Shown here: positions 4,924 through 23,776 of the stretch, piece after piece
Layout: each line of letters starts with the position of its first letter
Numbering within the stretch: position 1 is the first letter of the stretch
From: an uncultured archaeon
GTDB taxonomy: Archaea > Asgardarchaeota > Thorarchaeia > Thorarchaeales > CAZPUN01
Length of the DNA stretch: 32,000 nucleotides
Assembly (NCBI GenBank): GCA_964589775.1
Contig: CAZPUN010000023.1
Location: forward strand, 128,456 to 160,455
Direction: 5' to 3'
Position numbers and translations under genes: made by a program
The notes under the pieces: model-generated
Told to the model about the DNA's origin: nothing
The model's input: the letters and a program-made list of their open reading frames with translations, nothing else
Database searches by the model: none

Positions 4924-6303
4924 ATGTCTGGAACTGCAGGGCGTATTCTGTTTGATGTGACCCAAAACGAACGTGGCAGAATTTCTACTACATATAAGGC
5001 TTTAGCGAAGCTATTACGCGACCATGGATATGTTGTTGAAGAATACAATGAATTCTTAATTTTGCCGGATAAGATTTCAAAGGCAGATGTTATTGTTTTT
5101 GCATGCCCGAACGGTTCAAAACTTAGAACTGCAGAAATAAATACTTTAAGGCATTTCGTAGAACATGGTGGAAATCTTCTTTTGTTAAGCCATGCGGGTG
5201 GCGACCGTGGTTTAATGAGTAATTTGGGTGTTTTAGGTGATACATTTGGTATTCGATTTGATAACACACAAGTAATTGACGATCGAAATAATTTGAATAT
5301 AAAGACGATCCCAATCATTAGCGATATTAAAGATCATCCGATTGTTCGAAATGTATCTAGAATTGCATATCCCGCTGGATGTAGTCTTATCGTTGAAAGA
5401 AATGCACGTGGAATAATTTTTACTTCTGAGACTGCCGAACCGAATCGGGCTCCCGTACTTGCTATATCAAAATTAGGGAAAGGTAAAGTTGTTGCAATGG
5501 GTAGCTACGAGATATTTCGTGATGATGTCAATGGTGGTATTGATGCTGAAGATAACGAAAAGCTTGCATTAGGTATATTTGAATGGCTTACATCTAAGGA
5601 AGAAGATGAATATCTTTCTGCAAGGCCTGCCACACCAACAATCTCTACGATTCGTCCTGTGCGACAACCCCGACAAGCAGCAAAACAATCTCATGATACA
5701 ATTAACATGGAAGAAATGAAAAATATACTTGCGCGATTAATTAATTTAGTATTTGATTTATCAAAACAAATTGACGTTGTATCGAAAAAAGTTTCTAAAG
5801 TTGAAAAGGATGTTCTTGATTTCAAGCGAGTGTTTGTTAATTTCGCGCAATCTATGAATCAGCAGATTGGAGTAGTTATTCCTCAAACTACAATATCAGG
5901 TGAAGCAACTTCTCGTGCTAGTTTGGAAAGAAAGCTCAAAGCACTTAATGCTGAGAAGAAATCTATTACTGATATGCTGGCATACATTGAACGTAGGGTT
6001 GTAAAAGGTGCGATTTCACAAGAAGAATATAAGAATCAAACTTCAGTCCTCAAAGAAAAATTGAAAGGTATTAATGTAAAGATCAAGGAAATTCAAGCTC
6101 AACTTGAAAAGCTCGAAACAAAATCAAAAAATCAGTCATCACATGAAGCATCACATGAAGCATCAAGAGATACGTCTAATGAAGAAATAAATGAACAAGA
6201 ACAAAATTCAAATAGCTCAGAAGAGAATTCAAAATCCGACAATAGTAAGGAATCCAAAAATTCTGATGATCTTGATGAAACTCAACAAAACTCAACAACA
6301 TAA
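4924..6303 (+). CDS. GldG/IFT52-like (GIFT, class-I-GATase-like fold) domain protein with coiled coil, helical hairpin and acidic tail
   Basis: ILFDVTQNE...YKALAKLLR..Y, DVIVFACP, EINTLRHFVEHGGNLLLL, GKGKVVAMGSYEIF.D...DN match the GIFT/IFT52 N-domain pattern. No signal peptide. Confidence 0.75.
   Translation: MSGTAGRILFDVTQNERGRISTTYKALAKLLRDHGYVVEEYNEFLILPDKISKADVIVFACPNGSKLRTAEINTLRHFVEHGGNLLLLSHAGGDRGLMSNLGVLGDTFGIRFDNTQVIDDRNNLNIKTIPIISDIKDHPIVRNVSRIAYPAGCSLIVERNARGIIFTSETAEPNRAPVLAISKLGKGKVVAMGSYEIFRDDVNGGIDAEDNEKLALGIFEWLTSKEEDEYLSARPATPTISTIRPVRQPRQAAKQSHDTINMEEMKNILARLINLVFDLSKQIDVVSKKVSKVEKDVLDFKRVFVNFAQSMNQQIGVVIPQTTISGEATSRASLERKLKALNAEKKSITDMLAYIERRVVKGAISQEEYKNQTSVLKEKLKGINVKIKEIQAQLEKLETKSKNQSSHEASHEASRDTSNEEINEQEQNSNSSEENSKSDNSKESKNSDDLDETQQNSTT
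6137..6165 (+). repeat. 12-bp tandem repeat (CATCACATGAAG x2.4) encoding SHEA-SHEA-S
   Basis: Direct repeat visible in the low-complexity tail of the GIFT protein. Confidence 0.8.
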
Positions 6304-7652
6304 TATCCCATTTTTCTATTTTTTAGGATGTATTCTATAATATATGTCACCGCAATTAATAGTCCGCCTAATAAATAAAAATATCTGGATGGTATCATAA
6401 TTAATAAACTAAACGAAATAACCTTAATGAAGCCAATTATGGCTCCTGGAACGTTTGATTTGGCCATGTCTAAAGATGTTGGAAAATTAAATAATGCCCA
6501 AAACGGTACTAATGCTACCCAATAATATTTGTAACATCCCCGTGGCGAAAATAGATGTACAAAGATAAACATAATCATTGTTATGAATAATAATTTTCTA
6601 TAATATATTGGGTCTAGCATTTCGTCCTTTTTTATAATTAGCATAAAGAAGAATGAATTTAGGATTGTAATTAACAATAGAAAATTCGTACCTACTAATA
6701 TTGCAAGAATGATTGTAATATCTGGTGGGGCTCCTAATGCTATAAATGGTACTTCAAACTGTATTGGAACTGAATAATTTGGTAATTTTGTAATATCCGT
6801 ATAAATAAAGCCCGATGCTTTTGATATTATATCTGATATGTACTCGACATTTATGAAAATATATGGTGTGGATATAATCAAGACTACAGCTGCTAAAATG
6901 ATCATTGTTTTTAAGAATCTAAATACATCAATTTTATCATTATCTTTCTTAATTGCTGATGCGATTAATGGGAGAACAAGAAAGAATGCAATTTGTTTGC
7001 TCATTGCCGACAACCCAATAAAGACTGCCGCGATTCCATACCTCTCCTTTGTCATAAAATAAAATCCCATGAACCAAAAGAATACAAAAACTGGTGTATT
7101 TAGCCAAAGATATGTTGAGTAATAAAGATTGATCGGGTTGAATAATACACAGGATGCAGCGATTAACGCATATTTTTTATTATTAAATATATTCTGAGCG
7201 ATTCCGTAAACTGGTATTGCAATTAAAAAGTCAAAAGTTGCTAAAACCATTCCTATACTCCAAAATTGAGTTGGCAAAATTAGTTTGCCGAGCGTTATTA
7301 CATAAATATACATGGGGGGATAGAAATACCAAAGTTTATCCATACCTGAGCTGTACGGTATAGTTCCTTTTAAGAATGCATCGACCCATTTTACATAATA
7401 AAAGTCATAATCTGTATACCCTTCAAATTGAATATTTATAGTAAATCCAAAAAATGAGTATGTACCACTCCCTAGCCAAGGAAAGCCACTTTTTGTAATG
7501 TCTAATATTGCCATATTAAAAACATAGATGCGAACCGCTGCAGCTATTATCAAAATAATGGCAATTTCTCTATGATGTTTTATTATGTCTATGCTTCTCC
7601 TTACGTTTGAAATTAATAATTCTTTCATAAACTTTTTCGGTCCCATTCTCAT
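6282..7652 (-). CDS. Polytopic membrane glycosyltransferase, GT-C fold (GT87/DUF2029/PIG-M-like)
   Basis: About 11-12 TM segments. TDYDFY...G.IPY...YFYPP.Y, LFNP..LY, GLSAMSKQIAFFLVLP, YKYYWVALVPF. Confidence 0.7.
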   Translation of the reverse strand: MRMGPKKFMKELLISNVRRSIDIIKHHREIAIILIIAAAVRIYVFNMAILDITKSGFPWLGSGTYSFFGFTINIQFEGYTDYDFYYVKWVDAFLKGTIPYSSGMDKLWYFYPPMYIYVITLGKLILPTQFWSIGMVLATFDFLIAIPVYGIAQNIFNNKKYALIAASCVLFNPINLYYSTYLWLNTPVFVFFWFMGFYFMTKERYGIAAVFIGLSAMSKQIAFFLVLPLIASAIKKDNDKIDVFRFLKTMIILAAVVLIISTPYIFINVEYISDIISKASGFIYTDITKLPNYSVPIQFEVPFIALGAPPDITIILAILVGTNFLLLITILNSFFFMLIIKKDEMLDPIYYRKLLFITMIMFIFVHLFSPRGCYKYYWVALVPFWALFNFPTSLDMAKSNVPGAIIGFIKVISFSLLIMIPSRYFYLLGGLLIAVTYIIEYILKNRKMGYYVVEFC

Positions 7653-9739
7653 GTAAATTCAGCCTTTGCTCTTATAAGCTCTGCAACGCTTGCATCATCT
7701 TTCTTATCTATTTTTATTGTATTTAAGTTATCGAATTTTCCGGTATCTGTATGCGTAATCAGAAAAATCTGTTGGAATGAAGAATCATTCAGCAATGTTT
7801 CAATTACTGCATTGCGGCGTTTTTCGTCTAATTCTCCTAATGGTTCATCAAGGAGTACGCATCGTATTCGTGGTTGTTTTTGGGTACTGTTCTTCATAGG
7901 TCTTATTCTATTCATAGTTTTACTGATTCCTAATCTTAATGCAAGTCCTAGCGAAATCTTGTCTCCAAAACTCAATTCATCTATTGTTTTCTTACGCTTA
8001 TCGCGTTCATCGTATACTTCTATCTGTAATCCTTTTTTGTCTTCGGTTGCACTAATGTTTACGTTAACATATTGTCCCGCTGAAAACATCTTTATATAAT
8101 CAGAAGCTCGCTTACTGATCAATTTTAATAGTTTTCGTTCAAAAACATAGTTTGTAATAAACGGTTTTATAATGTAGTTTCTTATGTATTCAATATGTTC
8201 TATAATCCTTTCTAATTCCTCTTTTTCTTTCTTCATCTTTTTGGAATTTCTTAATTTTTCTTTCTTTTCCTCCAAAAGTTGAGATTCCTCATCAATATCT
8301 CGCTTTATTCGTTTAATATCGTCAAGTGTTCGTCTAATCTCATAGTCTATTTCCTGTATTTTCTTAATAAGTTCATCAATGGTCTTTACATCATATTTCT
8401 TTAAAATTTCTTCAATCGTATGTACATTGAACGTCATAAGAGCTTGTTCTAATTCCTTTTCTTTTTGTTCAATTTTATTTTTCTGTAATTCTAAATCTTC
8501 ATAATTTTTTATACGGTCCTGCAATTTGGCTTTCTTTCTTTCAAGATCGCGTTGCCTTTGTTGTGCAGATCTCTTTTTATCTCTTGCAGTTTTAATCTTT
8601 TTATTGTATTTTATTATGAGCTCTTTATTTTCCTTAATTTCCTCTTTATATTCTTTTATTATTTTTTGAGCATGTTCTTCTGTTAGTTCTGAACCACATA
8701 CAGGGCATCGGTATTGTTTATCGCCGGTCTTTTCAATTAGACTGAATTTGTCAAGTTTATCGTTAAGCTGTTCGTTATTGGTTTTAGCGGTTTCCAATTT
8801 ACCAGCTAACATTTCGATTGTTGATTGTAATGCCTCAATTTCTGAGTTTATCTCTTCTATTTCTTTATCATATTTCTGTATTAGTTCCTTAACCTGTGAT
8901 ATATCCTCTATGTTATATTCCTGAAATAGTTGTTTAATCCTCTTTTTATCACGTTCATATATTCTTCTTTCTACTTCCACATTATTTTTCTTGAGCTTAA
9001 TCTCATTCATTTGTTCATATGTCGGATATTCTTTTTGTATAGTCTGTAATTCTTCGAGTCGCTTCTTTGAATTCTCTAATTCTTTTTTATTATCCTCAAG
9101 CCCCTTCTTAATTCGCGTTATATCTTTCTCAATTTCCTCCGGGGGTAAAAATTTAGAGTTTATATCCTGAAGTTTCATCTTGTATTGCTTATATTTTCCA
9201 AGTAAATATTTGTCAATCTTGTTAAAGATTTCAATACTATATATATCCTCAATTTGCTTTCGTAATGTGGATGGCGTAGCTACTGCTAGTGAAGTGACTT
9301 TTCCTTGTTGGACTAAAATCGTTTCTAGTGCTTGATTATCATCTATATGAAGGATTTCTTTCAAACGTCTTTTTACACTTGTGGATTTATCCGTGATTTT
9401 CTTTTGTATCAGTTTCCCATTGGATTTGATCATCTCATATAATACAACTGAAGGACCAAAGCCTTTGGAATATTTTCGTTCTATCTTGTACTGTACGTTC
9501 ATTACTTCGAAACTAATAGCAACACGTGTTTCTTGCTCTCCATAGTGAATTAGTTTATCATTTTTATATCGTCTTTCGGAACCCCATAATCCCCATATTA
9601 TGGCATCGAATAATGAACTCTTTCCCGTTGAATTTGGTCCGCGGATAACTGTTAGACCTTCTGGTAGAATACCGTGTTCGGGTAATTTGATGTTTTTAAA
9701 TGGTTTGAAATTTTGTATTTCAATCGTTAGAATTCTTAT
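7649..9739 (-). CDS. rad50: Rad50/SbcC SMC-like ATPase (about 696 aa, putative ATA start)
   Basis: The frame stays open 79 codons upstream of the track's ATG: (I)RILTIEIQNFKPF...GLTVIRGPNSTGKSSLFDAI (Walker A). Q-loop LVQQG, Zn hook CPVC, signature LSFGDK, Walker B/D-loop LLDEPLGELD, H-loop LITH. Confidence 0.92.
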   Translation of the reverse strand: MRILTIEIQNFKPFKNIKLPEHGILPEGLTVIRGPNSTGKSSLFDAIIWGLWGSERRYKNDKLIHYGEQETRVAISFEVMNVQYKIERKYSKGFGPSVVLYEMIKSNGKLIQKKITDKSTSVKRRLKEILHIDDNQALETILVQQGKVTSLAVATPSTLRKQIEDIYSIEIFNKIDKYLLGKYKQYKMKLQDINSKFLPPEEIEKDITRIKKGLEDNKKELENSKKRLEELQTIQKEYPTYEQMNEIKLKKNNVEVERRIYERDKKRIKQLFQEYNIEDISQVKELIQKYDKEIEEINSEIEALQSTIEMLAGKLETAKTNNEQLNDKLDKFSLIEKTGDKQYRCPVCGSELTEEHAQKIIKEYKEEIKENKELIIKYNKKIKTARDKKRSAQQRQRDLERKKAKLQDRIKNYEDLELQKNKIEQKEKELEQALMTFNVHTIEEILKKYDVKTIDELIKKIQEIDYEIRRTLDDIKRIKRDIDEESQLLEEKKEKLRNSKKMKKEKEELERIIEHIEYIRNYIIKPFITNYVFERKLLKLISKRASDYIKMFSAGQYVNVNISATEDKKGLQIEVYDERDKRKKTIDELSFGDKISLGLALRLGISKTMNRIRPMKNSTQKQPRIRCVLLDEPLGELDEKRRNAVIETLLNDSSFQQIFLITHTDTGKFDNLNTIKIDKKDDASVAELIRAKAEFT

Positions 9740-9740
9740 T

Positions 9741-10994
9741 TTACTCTCCCCCTAATATTTCGTTTAATGCGTCTGTAATTAGTTCGACCAAAAAGTCTTC
9801 ATTATATTCTTCAGGAATTGTAAGCTCTGATATGAATTCTCGGACTTCCTCTTCTGGGTCCTCAATTAAATAATCTGTATCTTCTGTTGGATTTATTATA
9901 TCGCCCATATCTTCTTTATATACCTCGTAGTCCCATGTAAATTGTACAATATTATATTCGTCTGATTTCAAAATATCTGTTACATAATAACTCAAACGTG
10001 ATTCTATTTCCCAAGATTTTGTAAGGCTTGTTTTTCCTTCAATTTTAATTTTCAGGCGTGCTGCAGTTTGAGGGTCAAAGGGTGCTTTCAGTCCAAGTTG
10101 TTCTAATATCTTCTCGATTCGGTTCAATATATTTTCTGCAATATCTTTATTCGTTATTTCAATCTCTTTGACATACATTGGTCTTTGAGTCGGAATTATT
10201 ATCTTTTCCACAATTGGTTTCTTGCCCTTTTCTGCATTTACTAATAGTATTCCTTTTTCATGTTTATATTCATCAAATCGCCATTTTTCTATTGAACCTG
10301 CGTAATATCCATTTGCTGTATACTGGTGCATGTGATGGTCATGTCCCAATGCTAAATAATCATAATTATGTTGCTTAATCTCAGGTGGTAGTGTTTCATC
10401 TAATTCCATTCCATGCGCAACAGCAATCGATGTTTTAGTTCCCGGTTTTTGCTGCGTTAATATCCATTGTTTATATATTTCACGTAGTTGTGGATTTTGT
10501 AGAGTGTCTCGCGATACATATGGAAATGCAAAAACTTCGAAATCATCAAATTCGAATTTTAGTGGTTTCCGTTTATTTAATGCATCTTTAAGATCCACAT
10601 AAGTTGCTATGTATATTTCTGGGAATGCATACTTAAATGATGAAAGTAATGATGCATCAATTCCCTTGTATAATCCATGATTGCCTTCAATAATTATTAG
10701 GGGCTTGCCTACTTTTTTGAAGTATTTTTCAAAAGTATCAAATGCGATTTCCCTTGCAACTTCACTAACCGGATACGGATTACGTTCCCATGGTGCATCG
10801 AATAAGTCTCCAGAATGAACTACAACATCATATTTATCTTTCATCTCAATTATTTTGTCAAATACTCTCTGGAATTGCTTATAGAAATCATCCTCAACCC
10901 ATCGTGATCGTAATGTAACTGCCCAGCCATCTCTGACGCCATTCCGCTCTTTATGCCCTAAATGTGTATCTGATAAGTGAATTAATCTAACCAT
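9741..10994 (-). CDS. mre11: Mre11/SbcD nuclease
   Basis: Phosphoesterase motifs HLSDTHLG, HSGDLFD, EGNHG, VAHG, YLALGHDH, YAGSIE. Adjacent to rad50. Confidence 0.92.
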   Translation of the reverse strand: MVRLIHLSDTHLGHKERNGVRDGWAVTLRSRWVEDDFYKQFQRVFDKIIEMKDKYDVVVHSGDLFDAPWERNPYPVSEVAREIAFDTFEKYFKKVGKPLIIIEGNHGLYKGIDASLLSSFKYAFPEIYIATYVDLKDALNKRKPLKFEFDDFEVFAFPYVSRDTLQNPQLREIYKQWILTQQKPGTKTSIAVAHGMELDETLPPEIKQHNYDYLALGHDHHMHQYTANGYYAGSIEKWRFDEYKHEKGILLVNAEKGKKPIVEKIIIPTQRPMYVKEIEITNKDIAENILNRIEKILEQLGLKAPFDPQTAARLKIKIEGKTSLTKSWEIESRLSYYVTDILKSDEYNIVQFTWDYEVYKEDMGDIINPTEDTDYLIEDPEEEVREFISELTIPEEYNEDFLVELITDALNEILGGE

Positions 10995-11006
10995 AAAACT
11001 TCCCCA

Positions 11007-12848
11007 TTAAAATTGAACATCTGGTTCATTATTATCTGTTAGTTCAAAATTATTTAACTCTTGTTGTATCATTTCAAATCTGTCTGGGAATCTAGGAACA
11101 TTAAATGGTAATGGTGTACTGCGATAAGATGCTGTAAGTATTCCATGCCCAACTTCAAGGGTATTATATTCTTCAGTAAATCCCGATAATGGTGCGCTTG
11201 CACTTTCTATTGCCGCACGTGCTTCTCTTTCATTGCCTAATCTTAAAAAGAACTGTGTATTTATTTGTGATAATATATCTGCATCTATTGTGCTCACCTG
11301 CTGGCTAATCACAACTAAACCTATACCAAACTTACGGCCTTGTCTAGAAATGTCTTTGAATAATGAACTTTGCCCTAATATTTCAGAATTCAAAATTTGT
11401 GGGGCTTCTTCAATTGTAATCAAGATAATCGGTAATGTTCGAATTTCTCTTAAAGTGTTATTTGATTCCCGATATATCTTCAGTGCTTTAGGTCTAAAAT
11501 TATCCCAAAACTTTGCAGTCAGTCCCATTTTCGCTTTGTTTGTAAATGAGTCTATGGAATCTGAACTTGCTAATGCTTGCCTTAAATTAAAAAGAATTCT
11601 TGCGACAATGGTTGTTACTAAGAATTGTTCATGTACTGACAAAAGTGATGTATTTATATCAATGATTCTTCCACTTTCTAATGCTTCAATGATTTGTGGT
11701 AATATCGATTCTTGAACTGGAATGTCCTTGAATATTCGTGACCTGCGCAGGAAATATAATCTTCTCTGTACTGCATTATGAGTTTGTTTTGTCTCGCCCT
11801 CTATAGGGTCATTATTGTTTAGAATCTCATTAATCCAATTATCTCCGAAAATTCCATATGCTCGATTCATATACGCTATTTGTAATGGATTTAATGAAAG
11901 GATAGATATGATATCCTTTGGCAGGATCTCTGTCCATGCTATTTGTAATTTACGACCATAATTTTTTAATTCATGTGGCATTCTTTCAGTTGAAGCTGTG
12001 AGATAGAAAAAGTCTCCAATTACATTATTTCGATCATTTGAGCTCATTTCGTTTACAATATGTGCAATTCCTCTTCGATCTTCATCAGTTCCGGATCCCA
12101 ATGCATATTCATCATGTGGATCAATTATCAAACTTCCAATTCTCGGAATATTAATCGTAGATGATTTAAGCGATCTAAAGTTCGACAGAATCATAGATGA
12201 AATTAGAACTTGCATCAAATTGCTTTTTCCAGCACCAGTTGTTCCAAATATTCCCATATGTGTTGCTAGATTTCGGACTGGTAAATTCATTTCTACATTT
12301 AGAACCGATTCTCCGGAAACTAGGTTTCCAAAATAAAGTTCGCCTGCAATCTGGGTCCCTAACAAATCACGAATAAAATCATCACTTATGCCCGCTTGCG
12401 GTACATATACTCGTGCGAGATGGTTTGGTATTCTACGTGGGCGTTTGAATTCCCATTTTCTTTTATTTATGTTGTATTCAGAGTATCCAATGAAGCTTCC
12501 CCTTATATCTAAAATCAAATATTGATTTGCATCTACAAAATAAGTATCGTTCCTTCTAAGAAGATCTGTAGCAATATCTTCAAGATTTTTTATGTATGTG
12601 ATACTAGGTGAAATTGAAATTGCTCTGAAGAAAAACACTCGCTCTATGCCAATATCTTCATCCTTTGATGTTCTAATATAACTTGGAATAATAAATATTT
12701 CACCAATACTTGAATCATATAAATTCCCGATTACTTGCATCATAGATTGGTCTCCGGATGCAAGCCTTCCGAAATAGTATCCTAATTCATCTTGGTGAAG
12801 TCTTAATTCGGGACCTAAATCTTGTTGGATATACGTGTTGTCTGACAT
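11007..12848 (-). CDS. herA: HerA bipolar helicase/translocase (FtsK-HerA ATPase)
   Basis: THMGIFGTTGAGKSN, IIDPHDEY, Walker B IEEAP, ISRQGRKFGIGLVVISQ, ILSQINTQFFLRL. Confidence 0.92.
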   Translation of the reverse strand: MSDNTYIQQDLGPELRLHQDELGYYFGRLASGDQSMMQVIGNLYDSSIGEIFIIPSYIRTSKDEDIGIERVFFFRAISISPSITYIKNLEDIATDLLRRNDTYFVDANQYLILDIRGSFIGYSEYNINKRKWEFKRPRRIPNHLARVYVPQAGISDDFIRDLLGTQIAGELYFGNLVSGESVLNVEMNLPVRNLATHMGIFGTTGAGKSNLMQVLISSMILSNFRSLKSSTINIPRIGSLIIDPHDEYALGSGTDEDRRGIAHIVNEMSSNDRNNVIGDFFYLTASTERMPHELKNYGRKLQIAWTEILPKDIISILSLNPLQIAYMNRAYGIFGDNWINEILNNNDPIEGETKQTHNAVQRRLYFLRRSRIFKDIPVQESILPQIIEALESGRIIDINTSLLSVHEQFLVTTIVARILFNLRQALASSDSIDSFTNKAKMGLTAKFWDNFRPKALKIYRESNNTLREIRTLPIILITIEEAPQILNSEILGQSSLFKDISRQGRKFGIGLVVISQQVSTIDADILSQINTQFFLRLGNEREARAAIESASAPLSGFTEEYNTLEVGHGILTASYRSTPLPFNVPRFPDRFEMIQQELNNFELTDNNEPDVQF

Positions 12849-12863
12849 GATTTTTATCCTCCC

Positions 12864-14171
12864 TCATCTAATATGTATGAGCTCTCGTTGATTTAAAAAC
12901 AGATTTGAGTTAAATCCGAGTCCGGTTGCAATTTCAATTAGCATATTATATAATATGCGTTCAGTATCTCGTGATATCTTACAATTATTGTGAGCAACTG
13001 CAAGTGGAGCTGGATATCCTACCCAATATATACCTCGCGACATGAAATCTAAATCTTGGAATATTTGATGTTCATTCTCATGCAATGTGTTAATATCTTC
13101 ATCATAAATATTTTCTCGCCACCATAACGCATCGAAATCAACTCGTAATGTTGGCTTGTTTGGATCAAGCTGGACTAAATACGGAACTGTTAATGGTGGT
13201 GGGATATATCTGCGATTTTCTAAAATTCTAAGGCCTTGCTCGCTTGGTATTCCTCCCGGCAGTCGAATATACCATCTGGAATTATTGCCAAAAATCTCAT
13301 TTGCAATTGCTATAGCTTCATTTGTAAACGGAATTGTATGTGTTTTTGAGACCGCCATAACTATTACATTGTGGTCTCTCGCTGTTTTTAGTATATCTCT
13401 TAATAAATATCCAATTATGTCCGTGGGTAGCATAGTTGTTGGATCATATTTAAAGCTTAATGAACCATCTAGTAGCATATATCGTAAATTGCTACCTTCA
13501 ACTATTGCTCTCTTTGCGATTCCTAATTCTCCAATTCGCATTGAAGTTGAAAATAGATTTGCGGCTGAAATTGTAATTCCTTCAATTAGCATATCTTCAT
13601 TAAATAACGGTTTATTCTCTATATTATAGTGTTTTTTCATTTCTTCATAATATGTATTGATAATTTTTTGAAAATCTGCAGCTGTTGGTTCTTCAATTCG
13701 GTTGTTTGTATCATCATATACAGGATAATATTCAATTAATTGTTCATGAATATATCTAATAGGTTCTCCATCATCTTGGCTAATCCATTTTGTTTCTAGA
13801 TGGCCTTTACTAAAAAAGTTAGGATTTTCTTCTTTTGATACATTATGGAACAAGTTTCGTTCATTTGTTCCCGTATTATGTACCGCTAAATAATAACTTT
13901 CAACAATTATATCAATATCTTCAATTGTGACCAGTGGGTATACACCAGAGCCATCTACAGCTGCAATATTAAAATCATCTGGTTTTCCGAGTTCATTTGT
14001 GTATTTATGAGAAATCTTTAGTGGTTCGATTTTTTGGATTAATTCATTCATAATGCGTTCGCGGTCTAGTTCAAATCTTTTCTTGTTTTGCTCTCGTGTC
14101 CGCCTAATATCCAATAATGTTGCAGTAATTTGTCGTCTGAACTCATTTTGAAAAATTCTTATTAGTGACAT
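12864..14171 (-). CDS. nurA: NurA 5'-3' nuclease
   Basis: IAAVDGS, LLDGSL, VMAVSKT, GYPAPLAVAHNNCKI. First gene of the herA-mre11-rad50 run. Confidence 0.88.
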   Translation of the reverse strand: MSLIRIFQNEFRRQITATLLDIRRTREQNKKRFELDRERIMNELIQKIEPLKISHKYTNELGKPDDFNIAAVDGSGVYPLVTIEDIDIIVESYYLAVHNTGTNERNLFHNVSKEENPNFFSKGHLETKWISQDDGEPIRYIHEQLIEYYPVYDDTNNRIEEPTAADFQKIINTYYEEMKKHYNIENKPLFNEDMLIEGITISAANLFSTSMRIGELGIAKRAIVEGSNLRYMLLDGSLSFKYDPTTMLPTDIIGYLLRDILKTARDHNVIVMAVSKTHTIPFTNEAIAIANEIFGNNSRWYIRLPGGIPSEQGLRILENRRYIPPPLTVPYLVQLDPNKPTLRVDFDALWWRENIYDEDINTLHENEHQIFQDLDFMSRGIYWVGYPAPLAVAHNNCKISRDTERILYNMLIEIATGLGFNSNLFLNQRELIHIR

Positions 14172-21759: not shown

Positions 21760-22006
21760 GTGACACACTTCCAGATCTTTTATTTTGTTAATTTATTCTT
21801 TTATTTTTAAAATAATATTGTATATCTTGTGACCATTTACATCTTAAGAACGTTGCGACTTGTTCTACCATGAAAAAAAGCTAGTTTTTTATATAGAATT
21901 TCATATATATTATATTTAAAATAGCAATATGCATTTAAGTAGCGTTTATAATTATTTAAAATTGAATTATTTTATTCAAAAATTAAAAATTTAATGGGTG
22001 GCCACA

Positions 22007-22879
22007 TTGATAAGAGAATTACACGTCTTTGATAAAGAAAAATTGGTCTTCAAGGATTCAATAGTTCCTACAAAAGGAATTGATTTGGAAAAGATTCTTT
22101 ACGTTACAGTAAGTTCTGCATTTCAGCAAAAGGAATGGCGAATTGATAGTCTTGAAATTTCACGCTATAGATTTACTTACACAAATGCCCATGGGTATGC
22201 TTTTGTTATGACGTCTGATAGGGCCGCCACAAAAGAGAAAATTGAAGAAGCTTTTATGAAGGTAATTACTGAATTTGTCAAGATTTGCATGGATTCAAAA
22301 TGCAATGATGAAGATACAAAAGAAGACTTTAAGGATGCTTTTAGACGGATTGCAGGACGATTGCCCATTAAATTCTGTCTTGCAGGACATGGTGGAACTG
22401 GAAAAACTACATTGTTAGAACTTGCTATTCTGCCTACAAAAGGCCCCCCTCAGAAATATGTTCCTACATTCTTTGGCGATAAAGCCATGTTAAAATCAGA
22501 TTTTGATCCATATGTACTTTCACTATTTGACCTTGGTGGTCAGGATCGATTTGTACAAGAATGGAGCAAAATAATTCGAGCGAGTAGTGGCGTAATTGTT
22601 GTAAGTGATTCTACACCCGCAAATATATCTTGGCTACGAAGAGTTGCATTGCCAGTTCTCAAAGCGAATTTGCCATATTCTCGTGCAATTGCTCTTGCGA
22701 ATAAGCAAGATCTGCCCGGTGCATTATCCCCTGAAGAAGTAGAGCGCCGTCTCGGAATTCCCGCATATCCTATGATTGCGAATCGGAAAGAAAATCGCGA
22801 TAAATGGCTGAAATTGCTAAAGGATTTATTGTTCGAGAATTTAAGATTTATAGTTATAGGAGATGTTCCCGATGAGTGA
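22007..22879 (+). CDS. Longin domain fused to Arf-related small GTPase
   Basis: N-terminal about 115 aa has a longin pattern (IRELHVF...YRFTYTNAHGYAFVMTSD + helix). G1 GHGGTGKTT, G2 YVPT, G3 FDLGGQ, G4 ANKQDLPGA. Start TTG 22007 behind GGGTGG (GTG 21998 is the alternative). Confidence 0.88.
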   Translation: MIRELHVFDKEKLVFKDSIVPTKGIDLEKILYVTVSSAFQQKEWRIDSLEISRYRFTYTNAHGYAFVMTSDRAATKEKIEEAFMKVITEFVKICMDSKCNDEDTKEDFKDAFRRIAGRLPIKFCLAGHGGTGKTTLLELAILPTKGPPQKYVPTFFGDKAMLKSDFDPYVLSLFDLGGQDRFVQEWSKIIRASSGVIVVSDSTPANISWLRRVALPVLKANLPYSRAIALANKQDLPGALSPEEVERRLGIPAYPMIANRKENRDKWLKLLKDLLFENLRFIVIGDVPDE

Positions 22880-23438
22880 TGAATTGTCTTCAGTGATTTC
22901 AAAAATAGAAGACGCAACAAGAGAGTTACGACAGAAAATCACAGTGGAGCAGGATACAGAAATTAATAAAAAATTAGATAATATCATTGAGGACATTTCT
23001 ACACTTAAGATTACTATTAATCGTATAGCTTCGACCATTGCAACAATATCTACAAAAAATGACCAAATACTTAGTATTCTCTCAAGTAAAAAGATTCCTG
23101 TTGTTGAAGAAAAGCCATCTGAGCCTGAAATGCCAGAAATTCATATTGAAGAGTCTTCTATGGCCAAAAACGTTGAGGCAGCTACTGAAGAAGTATCTGA
23201 AGTATCCGAAGTCTCAGAACTTTCAGAAAAAGAACGTACAAGGCTTGAACAAGAACTTAGAACATTAGAAAGCAATCGTGATATTCTACAAGAGCGATTA
23301 AATGAATTATATGAATTGAGTCTTTCAGATCCAACATCTGAAAGCGAATATGAAGCTGAAATTGAGGAAAAAGAATCATCATTAAAAGAAACGAAAAAGA
23401 AAATACGATCAATTAAAAGAAAGCTTGGGAGGTCGTAA
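22872..23438 (+). CDS. Coiled-coil / acidic linker / C-terminal helical-hairpin protein
   Basis: SD AGGAGA then ATG 22872, overlapping the GTPase stop. Heptads, E-rich linker, hairpin LNEL...DPTSESEY. Confidence 0.75.
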   Translation: MSDELSSVISKIEDATRELRQKITVEQDTEINKKLDNIIEDISTLKITINRIASTIATISTKNDQILSILSSKKIPVVEEKPSEPEMPEIHIEESSMAKNVEAATEEVSEVSEVSELSEKERTRLEQELRTLESNRDILQERLNELYELSLSDPTSESEYEAEIEEKESSLKETKKKIRSIKRKLGRS

Positions 23439-23440
23439 AG

Positions 23441-23776
23441 TTGGGTATTTTTGATTCATTGTTAAGAAAGAAATACAAGAAGAAAATGGTTCATATTGAG
23501 CCCAAAGAATCCGAAGTTGCCCCTAAAAAGGAAGAAGTAACTAGCAGTGAAGAGATTGATACTCTTCTAAAGCAATATCAAGAGCTAATTAAAAAGCGTG
23601 ATGCATTAATAAAAGATCGCCAAGAATTAACCGAAAAGCTAGATCGCGGTGAAGTCACGCCTACCGAATTTAGAAAGATTTTGATAGAGAAGATAAAAGA
23701 AAACACTCAAATCTCAATGCAAATTCGGGATATTTCTGCAAAATTAGCTAAATTAGGACATCCTGTAGTTGGATAA
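23441..23776 (+). CDS. Small protein with N-terminal amphipathic/basic helix and steadiness-box-like helical hairpin
   Basis: TTG start with SD GGAGGT. MGIFDSLLRKKYKKK; LTEKLDRGEVTPTEFRKIL. Confidence 0.75.
   Translation: MGIFDSLLRKKYKKKMVHIEPKESEVAPKKEEVTSSEEIDTLLKQYQELIKKRDALIKDRQELTEKLDRGEVTPTEFRKILIEKIKENTQISMQIRDISAKLAKLGHPVVG

Follow-up and report, generated by a model that had tools for sequence, protein, structure and literature searches.

The closest described counterparts of the hairpins reported here are the steadiness boxes of ESCRT-I (the Vps23/TSG101 core, PF09454, the Vps28 N-domain, PF03997, and Vps37 Mod(r)), which are likewise helical hairpins, some 60 residues long, whose tight turn contains Gly and leads into [STD]-x-x-x-[YF]. 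Hairpins resembling steadiness boxes have already been published from varied Asgard proteins; multidomain proteins containing a steadiness box were described in Asgard archaea and proposed to dock to ESCRT-I (Makarova et al. 2024, PMC10936438). In SHOCT (PF09851; Eberhardt et al. 2013, PMC3581485) and in GvpG (PF05120, C-terminal part), two amphipathic helices are joined by a short indel-free turn with a conserved Gly and Glu, a pattern that the ORF3 and GIFT hairpins resemble, and the module is frequently C-terminal on diverse proteins. SHOCT is about 28–30 residues long, whereas the present units are 64-residue coiled-coil hairpins, and since SHOCT was not found to oligomerise in the experiment of that study (PMC3581485), a function cannot be transferred from it. 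The window analysed here, a stretch of 32,000 nt from an uncultured archaeon of the Thorarchaeales (contig CAZPUN010000023.1), encodes three hairpins, labelled A (ORF2 residues 125–188), B (ORF3 residues 39–102) and C (GIFT protein residues 331–394). A first-pass annotation had read them as an ESCRT-I-core-like module that could tie the GIFT protein into a GTPase-operon complex.

The GTPase operon, the GIFT gene and their hairpins

Hairpins A and B are encoded within an operon that begins with a longin-Arf-like GTPase gene:

21998–22879, plus strand: longin-Arf-like GTPase, first gene of the operon (Pfam Arf, E 3.9e-11; weak Fuz_longin_1 match)
22863–23438, plus strand: ORF2, 191 aa, second gene of the operon, with a 17-nt overlap with the GTPase stop
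23235–23426, plus strand: hairpin A, family consensus LFEKENE..EM.LNDPAsA.EY, D32 and P33 invariant
23325–23351, plus strand: turn of hairpin A, S-D-P-T-S-E-S-E-Y, D32 and P33 invariant, E38 and Y39 nearly so
23441–23776, plus strand: ORF3, 111 aa, TTG start 2 nt past the ORF2 stop
23441–23485, plus strand: N-terminal segment of ORF3, MGIFDSLLRKKYKKK, family motif MGLFDxWRRKK, M1, G2, D5 and R9 invariant in 9 orthologues
23555–23746, plus strand: hairpin B, consensus LVAEYERL..RR.ELQ.ER.ELT.RLDxGELx.xEFRKELM
23642–23671, plus strand: turn of hairpin B, D-R-G-E-V-T-P-T-E-F, E33 invariant, G32 and F39 nearly so

The GTPase gene adjoins ORF2 and ORF3 in every same-order locus examined, and in another Asgard family it directly adjoins an ORF3-like gene (L088). 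The ORF2 product is composed of a helical N-terminal region, an acidic linker and the C-terminal hairpin, and in 22 related loci the gene immediately preceding ORF3 encodes an orthologue of about 190 aa. Profile comparisons and a genome HMM search detected no relatives of hairpin A beyond these orthologues; hhalign gave at most 5.5% against the other families, and the 28% obtained with a merged profile of C and family D (described below) lies inside the controls. The sole recurring Pfam lead was the ABC-F C-terminal coiled-coil hairpin (ABC_tran_CTD, PF16326), a subthreshold match in 8 of 23 members (best E 1e-3), and the ESM Atlas model of ORF2 residues 117–190 has this same hairpin as its nearest structural neighbour. 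Unlike ABC-F proteins, ORF2 has no ABC ATPase domain, and the likeness is probably just one generic to antiparallel coiled coils. The ESM Atlas provided no usable feature match for ORF2.

The ORF3 product features a basic amphipathic N-terminal segment, a disordered linker, the hairpin and a C-terminal LGH/YxG tail. The N-terminal segment is probably a membrane-binding amphipathic helix. AF2 predicts helices at residues 31–69 and 74–104 (pLDDT > 90), and the break at residues 70–73 corresponds to G32–T35 of hairpin B. The ESM Atlas record of ORF3 begins at residue 16 (a Met16 start), so the N-terminal motif is lost from it, and the nearest clusters are unnamed Thorarchaeota proteins (scores 0.86–0.89).

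Hairpin C is encoded upstream in the window:

4924–6303, plus strand: GIFT protein, 459 aa (Pfam IFT52_GIFT, E 1.7e-24)
5914–6105, plus strand: hairpin C, consensus K.L.KE.KSVEQL..HIE.RHSSGAMP.E.Y.EQ..KLD.
6004–6030, plus strand: turn of hairpin C, K-G-A-I-S-Q-E-E-Y, AF2 break at residues 361–365, G32, A33 and Y39 nearly invariant

The GIFT domain (about residues 1–225) is followed by a linker, a long helix (262–315), the hairpin and an acidic Ser/Asn-rich tail. Foldseek matched the protein to the IFT52 N-domain (7e-18) and to OST48/Wbp1 (1e-11 to 1e-9), and homology among its orthologues extends through residue ~400. AF2 places helices at residues 331–360 and 366–426 (pLDDT 84–92). The text and available supplements of the 2024 ESCRT survey (PMC10936438) contain no mention of GIFT, ThuA or DUF4350, and the combination of a GIFT domain with a hairpin was not found in them.

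The translations quoted in the first-pass annotation match the sequence exactly, and a helical hairpin with the same turn location holds for A, B and C. Within each family (23–33 orthologues) the segment is free of indels and its turn is formed by invariant or nearly invariant residues. The three segments are thus predicted to be conserved two-helix hairpins; for ORF3 and GIFT this is supported by AF2 helix-turn-helix models (pLDDT 84–94) that break exactly at hairpin positions 32–35, and for ORF2 we infer it from the invariant Asp-Pro at the turn.

Mutual resemblance and the coiled-coil background

Recounting confirmed 16/64 identities for A-B and 15/64 for A-C, as well as the presence of L4, L11, E38, I57, I60 and L64 in all three hairpins; B-C shares 9/64 in the same gapless register. 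The common residues occupy heptad core columns plus the helix-capping position E38, and the hydrophobic columns 4-8-11-15-18-22-25-29 and 34-39-43-46/47-50-53-57-60-64 are found in all families, including a bona fide Vps28-N hairpin. The turn [G/D]-x-x-[S/T]-x-x-E-[Y/F] that had been ascribed to all three is seen in the ORF3 and GIFT families as a G-x-[IV]-[ST]-x-x-E-[YF]-type turn, a type that also occurs in the N-terminal hairpin of the clade's own Vps28; ORF2 has Asp-Pro rather than Gly.

In-register shuffles gave z values of 3.9 (A-B), 5.4 (A-C) and 3.5 (B-C), which drop to 2.5, 3.4 and 2.2 respectively when heptad phase is preserved. When all 2963 genome ORFs of at least 100 aa were scanned over 64 residues without gaps, other ORFs came out level with or above two of the pairs: 23 other ORFs equal or exceed the A-B score of 37 when A is the query, and 7 do so when B is, and the B-C score of 25 is exceeded by 31 and 43. 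A-C (score 60) is the reciprocal best match, only 3 points ahead of long coiled coils without a shared hairpin (57 and 57) and just ahead of the family E protein (55). BLASTP without composition correction ranks six other coiled-coil proteins above A-C; with the correction, A-B, A-C and B-C are all missing from the 12 best matches listed for every query, and phmmer likewise ranks other coiled coils higher. The motif GE-I-N-P-E-D is matched as well in an unrelated enzyme-sized ORF (C57:39535-40305).

Profiles built from orthologues (23 for A, 33 for B and 30 for C) gave hhalign probabilities of 3.7%, 5.5% and 1.2% among the three families. The scores of 13–17 lie inside the range of 9–24 obtained with windows of ORF4, an unrelated coiled coil. 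Around the turn, the highest-scoring local profile alignments of A-C and B-C, and those with hairpins D and E2 (described below), keep the register. The family HMMs produced no cross match at E < 0.1 against 7699 genome ORFs. The first-pass annotation had named alignment no better than that of random coiled coils as evidence against its reading, and had suggested a shuffle control; at both the sequence and the profile level, the similarity does not exceed that background. By these comparisons, the mutual resemblance of A, B and C is no greater than that of ordinary coiled coils, and their common descent finds no support in hhalign, family HMMs, BLASTP or the gapless scan.

Two further proteins of this genome (G000) carry related hairpins:

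C20:42273-42914: family E protein, ~200 aa, with tandem hairpins E1 and E2
C21:16306-17103: family D protein, 266 aa, with a C-terminal hairpin

In-register hhalign probabilities were 97% for B-E1, 94% for B-E2, 96% for E1-E2 and 88% for C-D, so the profile method has the power to detect real links. From these profile matches, the ORF3 hairpin is homologous to both family E hairpins and the GIFT hairpin to that of family D. D-E2 reached 51%, and the merged profiles of B with E and of C with D reached 46%, which is above the controls for the former and inside those for the latter. The family D hairpin matches Pfam CdvA (PF18822) with 23.5 bits (E 6e-5; cut-off 30 bits), and its gene lies 2.3 kb from that of an 810-aa protein bearing a Vps28_C domain. 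B, C, D and E all have subthreshold matches to one and the same region of Pfam GvpG.

Comparison with ESCRT-I, SHOCT and CdvA

The ESCRT-I-core-like fold proposed earlier is borne out for the predicted ORF3 hairpin, which superposes on the Vps23/TSG101 steadiness-box chains 2f6m_C, 6vme_F/B, 2caz_D and 2f66_A with an rmsd of 0.8–1.3 Å over 57–62 residues (21–24% identity). This superposition is not discriminating, because Foldseek gives the steadiness-box chains an E of only 0.4–0.9, designed hairpins come out ahead of them, and Z >= 8 against the same model is attained by 271 solved chains. Foldseek returned no match to the model at E <= 0.001, and VIA-align gave hundreds of equally good hairpins, with ESCRT-I chains included and not standing out. 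The model also resembles the CdvA-like hairpin (PF18822) and ESCRT-III alpha1-alpha2 (S. islandicus CdvA, Z 10.3; CHMP4B, Z 10.1; Snf7, Z 9.5); these values are equalled by seryl-tRNA synthetase arms, bMERB domains and designed hairpins, and hairpins A, B and C differ from these proteins in having no PF18822 or Snf7 match. Profile searches of solved structures yielded nothing relevant for the ORF2 and ORF3 families, and for the GIFT family they yielded yeast Vps28-N chains (E 0.08–0.16) amid designed coiled coils.

Profile comparison with Pfam Vps23_core, Mod_r, VPS28 and SHOCT, which the first-pass annotation had put forward as a check, gave no match at threshold, and membership in the steadiness-box family was not upheld. 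The window's copy of hairpin C alone scores 18.1 bits with Vps23_core (cut-off 26.8) and 15.6 bits with VPS28 (cut-off 24.5), and is the second-best genomic match for both; GIFT orthologues do not have these matches, a difference from ESCRT-I. The ORF2 and ORF3 hairpins did not match Vps23_core or VPS28 at E up to 10, and none of the three was matched in a genome scan with Mod_r (PF07200). Scans of the organism's own genome with Vps23_core, VPS28, Mod_r, SHOCT and UEV were subthreshold except for a canonical Vps28 on contig C64. The Vps28 family model finds only 8 of the 87 genomes of the class; the Vps28 protein of this genome recovers 86 of 87 and was therefore used instead. The resulting profile of the clade's Vps28 N-terminal hairpin (30 orthologues) gave hhalign probabilities of 0.36% (A), 0.37% (B) and 0.20% (C), with scores of 9–11 (9–12 over all the hairpins compared) against a control maximum of 15.7. 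Hydrophobic columns make up 23–30% of the hairpins in families A to E, consistent with a single core seam, versus 33% in Vps28-N.

Matches to SHOCT were likewise subthreshold: 10 of 33 ORF3-family members reached E <= 1 (best 1.8e-4), and 15 of 33 gave subthreshold matches to GvpG. Hairpin C scored 12.1 bits with SHOCT and 20.8 bits with GvpG, the ORF2 family gave no SHOCT match, and nothing in the genome exceeded the 27-bit SHOCT cut-off. The ORF3 and GIFT families conserve G32 and E38 or E33 without indels; the units span 64 residues, not about 30, and in ORF2 the Gly is replaced by Asp-Pro. In scans of the 64–65-residue segments, DUF7310 (PF23991, a coiled-coil region of unknown function; cut-off 40 bits) gave subthreshold matches to 25 of 30 GIFT-family hairpins at E <= 1 (best 7.3e-7) and the window's hairpin C with 14.5 bits.

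Genomic linkage and alternative explanations

The GIFT protein is present in 85 of the 87 genomes of the class and ORF3 orthologues in about 47 of 87 (46 of the 86 same-order genomes at E < 1e-15); about 15 genomes that are at least 90% complete have GIFT and no ORF3 match. Where both loci are on one contig, they lie 184 kb (G009), 0.89 Mb (G002) and 1.09 Mb (G058) apart, and elsewhere among relatives they are on different contigs. The GIFT gene adjoins genes for a PMT_2 glycosyltransferase and for Rad50, Mre11 and HerA, and the last three separate it from the operon in the window. No ESCRT genes were found near the GIFT gene or the operon in this genome, in which a cluster of Vps28, ESCRT-III-like and Vps4 genes is located on contig C64. 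A conserved GIFT-Vps28 spacing of 11–17 kb in a sister family was considered as a functional link and rejected, since other conserved genes lie inside it, none of them ESCRT-related by best match in this genome, where the spacing is broken. Co-folding of A, B and C with the GIFT hairpin as scored partner, run without controls, returned 'no answer' (0.00 versus a mark of 0.32) and says nothing either way on binding. No link between the GIFT protein and the GTPase operon was found, and the proposed complex joining them is not supported: their distributions differ, and their loci lie 0.18–1.1 Mb apart where they share a contig.

Probably, then, A, B and C are three distinct coiled-coil hairpins, each made of two antiparallel helices and conserved within its own family. 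They share a physical design; their common descent is not demonstrable, and the roles of the operon and of GIFT would be independent. The gapless alignment could follow from the design itself: a first helix of about 30 residues would be stopped at positions 32–33 by Gly or Asp-Pro, and a standard helix start would follow (hydrophobic 34, Ser/Thr/Asp 35, Glu 38, Tyr/Phe 39). Such a helix start is the 'hydrophobic staple plus capping box' of helix-capping studies. The tight turn would fix the register of the heptad core positions, and a composition rich in Lys, Glu, Leu and Ile would add to alignability. Each hairpin may be a rigid stalk through which its protein self-associates or docks to a partner. 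Those of ORF2 and ORF3 would act within the GTPase-operon assembly, which ORF3 may keep at the membrane via its N-terminal amphipathic helix, and the GIFT hairpin, working apart from the operon, would serve the oligomerisation or docking of the GIFT protein itself. A purely compositional resemblance of segments that are not structural modules is hardly credible; the composition and the loss of BLAST matches on correction speak for it, but the near-invariant turns, the indel-free lengths across 23–33 orthologues per family, the confident AF2 models and the homologous hairpins in other families do not fit it. Scarcely more probable is the six-helix 1:1:1 heterotrimer of the first-pass annotation, in which an ESCRT-I-headpiece-like core recruits GIFT into the GTPase-operon complex. 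The gapless alignment, the shared turn and the reciprocal A-C match are all that favour it, against the difference in distribution between GIFT and ORF3, the unconserved linkage in relatives and at least three further hairpins of the same design (D, E1 and E2), of which E1 and E2 are nearer B than A or C, and D nearer C than A or B. Hydrophobic residues at a/d core positions only would also leave little surface for a six-helix core.

Considerably more plausible than these two, yet on balance unlikely, is that A, B and C, or at least B and C, are diverged members of one ancient steadiness-box/CdvA/SHOCT-like superfamily of the class described by Makarova et al. (2024), acting as docking modules, possibly for ESCRT-I components. 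The turn G32-x-h34-[STD]35-x-x-x-[YF]39 is common to the clade's Vps28-N hairpin, B is connected to C through E2 and D (94%, 51% and 88%) and by the merged profiles, and family D matches CdvA and sits close to the Vps28_C protein. The GIFT-family match to Vps28-N structures at E ~0.1, the close superposition of the ORF3 model on steadiness-box chains and the Asgard multidomain proteins already reported (PMC10936438) point the same way. However, every link to a curated family is subthreshold, the same-order Vps28-N profile stays below 1% with every hairpin, and the E2-D link and the merged comparison fall within or near the coiled-coil controls. The ORF2 hairpin is unlinked at its 5.5% maximum and 28% control-range match, the fold match is generic, and families A to E have one core seam with fewer hydrophobic columns than Vps28-N. 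B and C may nevertheless have a very old common origin, given the reciprocal A-C match, the in-register profile alignments, the BE-CD and D-E2 values and the weak matches to Vps28-N, Vps23_core, VPS28 and GvpG. The widest form of this idea, which we regard as improbable, is that B, C, D, E and possibly A form one fast-evolving, Asgard-wide superfamily of docking hairpins related to the steadiness box and CdvA, plugging machines into a common hub as a prokaryotic forerunner of the ESCRT-I hairpin assembly; its partners would be the longin-Arf GTPase module, the cytoplasmic IFT52/OST48-type GIFT protein and the Vps28_C multidomain protein.

Were the heterotrimer true, an Asgard archaeon would have a GIFT protein of the IFT52/OST48 type physically joined to a longin-Arf GTPase module, with a bearing on how eukaryotic trafficking complexes arose; the evidence does not back this. 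Coiled-coil hairpins can be expected, from their geometry and helix capping, to align in register without gaps, and a claim of homology among them needs coiled-coil controls. The genome does encode at least two genuine hairpin families, one comprising ORF3 and family E and the other GIFT and family D, and these are open to experiment.

Genes that carry the hairpins

The source genome is an Asgard genome bin of 2.16 Mb in 64 contigs (96.75% complete), in which the window occupies C23:128456-160455; the nearest ESM Atlas clusters come from Thorarchaeota. Three proteins of the window carry a 64-residue helical hairpin (A, B and C).

5914-6105: hairpin C, residues 331-394 of the 459-aa GIFT protein
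21998-22879: longin-Arf-like GTPase, operon gene 1 (Pfam Arf, E 3.9e-11)
22863-23438: ORF2, 191 aa, operon gene 2
23235-23426: hairpin A, at the C-terminus of ORF2
23441-23776: ORF3, 111 aa, operon gene 3
23555-23746: hairpin B, inside ORF3

The GTPase, ORF2 and ORF3 genes form a tight, co-directional operon, followed 3' by a gene for a coiled-coil protein, in which a C-terminal winged-helix-type (TrmB/MarR) match is weak and subthreshold, and then by more genes. The order GTPase-ORF2-ORF3-coiled-coil protein is kept in the sister family, which belongs to the same order. With a TTG start, ORF3 opens MGIFDSLLRKKYKKK (window 23441-23485), and its orthologues open MGLFDxWRRKK. This basic, amphipathic N-terminus resembles that of Arf-family GTPases. 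It sits on a separate small protein, and the adjoining GTPase has a longin domain as its own N-terminus. In the ESM Atlas, ORF3 begins at Met16 and consequently lacks the amphipathic segment. Other Asgard families, at loci L088 and L083-L086, also have small proteins like ORF3, with an amphipathic N-terminus, a linker, a hairpin and an LGxP tail. At L088 (G089:C213:7700-10000) the gene is directly 3' of a longin-Arf GTPase homologue, without an intervening ORF2. Loci L083-L086 belong to genomes of 1.3-1.4 Mb (G386, G388-G390), and at L083, L084 and L086 (G388-G390) its neighbours are a ferredoxin-like gene and what seems to be an aminoacyl-tRNA synthetase gene.

The GIFT domain makes up the N-terminal 225 residues of its protein (Pfam IFT52_GIFT, E 1.7e-24), and Foldseek matches it to the IFT52 N-domain (7e-18) and to OST48/Wbp1 (~1e-11), the latter an oligosaccharyltransferase subunit. 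The protein is cytoplasmic. At window 4924-7652 its gene is convergent with a minus-strand gene (6282-7652) for a membrane glycosyltransferase of PMT_2 type, whose 3' end it overlaps, and in relatives (L180, L181) it adjoins two paralogues of this transferase.

The AF2 model of ORF3, run with alignments, has helices at residues 31-69 and 74-104 (pLDDT >90), and that of the GIFT protein at 331-360 and 366-426 (pLDDT 84-92); in both, the interruption between the helices lies at positions 32-35 of the hairpin. For ORF2, an invariant Asp-Pro suggests a C-terminal hairpin, and residues 117-190 of its Atlas model align to ABC-F C-terminal hairpins.

Similarity among the hairpins and the design of the turn

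The first-pass annotation had described the same hairpin in all three proteins. Its translations and hand counts are correct (16/64 identities for A-B and 15/64 for A-C; B-C has 9/64), and L4, L11, E38, I57, I60 and L64 are indeed common to the three. In-register shuffling gave z values of 3.9, 5.4 and 3.5, which fell to 2.5, 3.4 and 2.2 when heptad phase was kept, both sets of values being uncorrected for the choice of the best register among many coiled coils. In a gapless 64-residue scan of 2963 ORFs of at least 100 aa, the A-B score of 37 was matched or exceeded by 23 ORFs with A as query and by seven with B, and the B-C score of 25 was exceeded by 31 and 43. The A-C score of 60 was a reciprocal best, closely followed by two long coiled coils without the shared hairpin (57 each) and a protein of family E, described below (55). 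BLASTP without composition correction placed A-C at 27.7 bits (E 0.035), with six other coiled-coil proteins ranking higher; with correction, none of the three pairs was among the 12 best matches listed per query. The sole phmmer cross-match was C to A (E 8.8).

Orthologue alignments (n=23 for A, 33 for B and 30 for C) show that each family is conserved, with different residues kept in each: LFEKENE..EM.LNDPAsA.EY in A, LVAEYERL..RR.ELQ.ER.ELT.RLDxGEL....EFRKELM in B and KSVEQL..HIE.RHSSGAMP.E.Y.EQ in C. Profile-profile comparison gave hhalign probabilities of 3.7% for A-B (out of register), 5.5% for A-C (helix 2 only) and 1.2% for B-C. Against fifteen 64-residue control windows from the unrelated ORF4 coiled-coil family, the A, B and C profiles scored up to 22-24, versus 13-17 among themselves. 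Run over the genome's 7699 ORFs, the family HMMs matched only themselves, with A to C at E 0.4 and B matching neither A nor C. Alignment scores no better than those of random coiled coils, the outcome that the first-pass annotation had named as refuting its proposal, are therefore what was seen.

The hydrophobic columns are the same in every family, the clade's bona fide Vps28 N-terminal hairpin included (4-8-11-15-18-22-25-29, 34, 39, 43-46/47-50-53-57-60-64). A tight turn sets the heptad register in both helices, so that hairpins aligned on the turn match along the core; of the residues shared by all three, L4, L11, I57, I60 and L64 occupy such core columns. E38 belongs to an [ILVM]34-[STD]35-x-x-E38-[YF]39 pattern after Gly32 (or Asp-Pro). 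In the light of established helix-capping work, the turn pattern reads as a Gly C-cap closing helix 1, with a hydrophobic staple/capping box opening helix 2. Short links between helices are generally solved in this way. The ORF3 HMM also matched KGEINPEDIDE in an unrelated 257-aa ORF (C57:39535-40305).

The null result for A, B and C is informative because the same method recovers real links, to two further hairpin families of the source genome.

C20:42273-42914, minus strand: family E, ~200 aa, two tandem hairpins (locus L101:474-1085)
C21:16306-17103, plus strand: family D, 266 aa (locus L100:507-1301)

Family E, seen in many genomes of the order, was picked up by the ORF3 profile in many relatives. 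Its hairpins E1 and E2 (with VEYTALRKS... and VEWTALKSS... among them) are clear internal duplicates (hhalign 96%), and B matches both in register (E1 at 97%, E 2e-11, across 63 columns; E2 at 94%). Family E matches to SHOCT and GvpG were subthreshold. The best match of the GIFT hairpin is the C-terminal hairpin of family D (88%, in register), a family kept in 75/87 genomes. D-E2 (51%) and D-E1 (37%) are marginal, and A reaches at most 5.5% with any other family and 28% with merged {C,D}, within controls. At the level of sequence profiles there are thus at least two real hairpin families, B with E and C with D, with a possible link between the two, and the ORF2 hairpin stands apart.

The N-terminus of family D is a helical region with a weak Syntaxin match (E 6e-4), and a Pro-rich linker leads to the hairpin. 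An 810-aa protein with a Vps28_C-like domain (C21:19446-21875) is encoded 2.3 kb away, a pairing seen again in relatives at ~4-5 kb. The pair resembles a steadiness-box-type hairpin and a Vps28_C domain divided between neighbouring genes.

Comparison with ESCRT-I and other named families

The description "ESCRT-I-like" is fair as to shape but does not discriminate. Foldseek gave nothing at E <=0.001 for the ORF3 model; ESCRT-I headpiece chains superpose on it at 0.8-1.3 A, interspersed with designed hairpins. VIA-align returned 271 chains at Z >=8, with ESCRT-I ranking 43rd and CdvA, CHMP4B, Snf7, seryl-tRNA synthetase arms, bMERB domains and an Asgard ribophorin-I cytoplasmic domain also included.

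Pfam matches of the window's GIFT hairpin were all subthreshold (GvpG 20.8, Vps23_core 18.1, VPS28 15.6 and SHOCT 12.1 bits); among its orthologues DUF7310 recurs (25/30, best E 7e-7) and Vps23_core does not. The ORF3 family matched GvpG (15/33) and SHOCT (10/33) below threshold, and the ORF2 family ABC_tran_CTD alone (8/23). Against the PDB, the GIFT-family profile reached yeast Vps28-N at E 0.08-0.16. In the most direct test, a profile of the Vps28 N-terminal hairpin from 30 genomes of the same order scored <1% against every hairpin. SHOCT was defined as a two-helix unit, ~30 residues long, in which a Gly and a Glu are conserved, and the experiment of the defining study did not show oligomerisation (Eberhardt et al. 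2013, PMC3581485). A, B and C span 64 residues.

Asgard multidomain proteins with a steadiness box or Vps28_C have been proposed to dock to ESCRT-I (Makarova et al. 2024, PMC10936438); in the same study, HHpred connected the steadiness box with the hairpin of CdvA. GIFT, IFT52, ThuA and DUF4350 are unmentioned in the main text of that paper, as are IFT52, DUF4350, ThuA, GldG and SHOCT in the available part of its supplements. The canonical ESCRT cluster of the genome (C64:32106-34782) encodes Vps28 (265 aa; 24.6 bits against Pfam VPS28), a Vps4-like ATPase whose N-terminus is MIT-like, and a 224-aa product on the opposite strand. Orthologues of this Vps28 occur in 86/87 genomes of the class; the Pfam model alone detects 8/87.

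The GIFT protein and the GTPase operon

A heterotrimer tying the GIFT protein to the operon, as had been proposed, is not supported by distribution or location. The GIFT protein with its hairpin is kept in 85/87 genomes of the class, versus ~47/87 for true ORF3 orthologues (E <1e-15), and ~15 genomes at least 90% complete have GIFT and no match to this ORF3 query. On shared contigs the two genes are separated by 184 kb in G009, 0.89 Mb in G002 and 1.09 Mb in G058. In the window the distance is 17 kb, taken up by the PMT_2 glycosyltransferase, Rad50, Mre11, HerA and other genes. The minus-strand run at 7649-14171, encoding Rad50 (zinc hook), a Mre11-type phosphoesterase, HerA helicase and a 435-aa protein without a Pfam match, presumably NurA, resembles the archaeal DNA-end-resection gene set. 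Vps28-N packs in the six-helix headpiece. Its hydrophobic columns amount to 33%, versus 23-30% in hairpins A-E (a/d seam only), which speaks weakly against six-helix packing. A GIFT-Vps28 spacing of 11-17 kb in the sister family, not kept in the source genome, was rejected as an ESCRT tie; the interval is occupied by further conserved genes, and judged by best match in the source genome not one of them is ESCRT-related.

That the ORF3 and GIFT hairpins share a very ancient ancestor, as members of a steadiness-box, CdvA or SHOCT-like class, is possible but less probable. The family D hairpin matches CdvA at E 6e-5, and merged {B,E} against {C,D} reaches 46%, which exceeds the BE controls and lies within the CD controls. 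What stands of the original proposal is that the hairpins are real and conserved; their sameness is not supported over coiled-coil controls. The favoured reading, of moderate probability, is that the three are distinct coiled-coil hairpins built to a common design, in which case ORF2 and ORF3 would probably act in an assembly of the operon products and the GIFT hairpin would serve an independent role.
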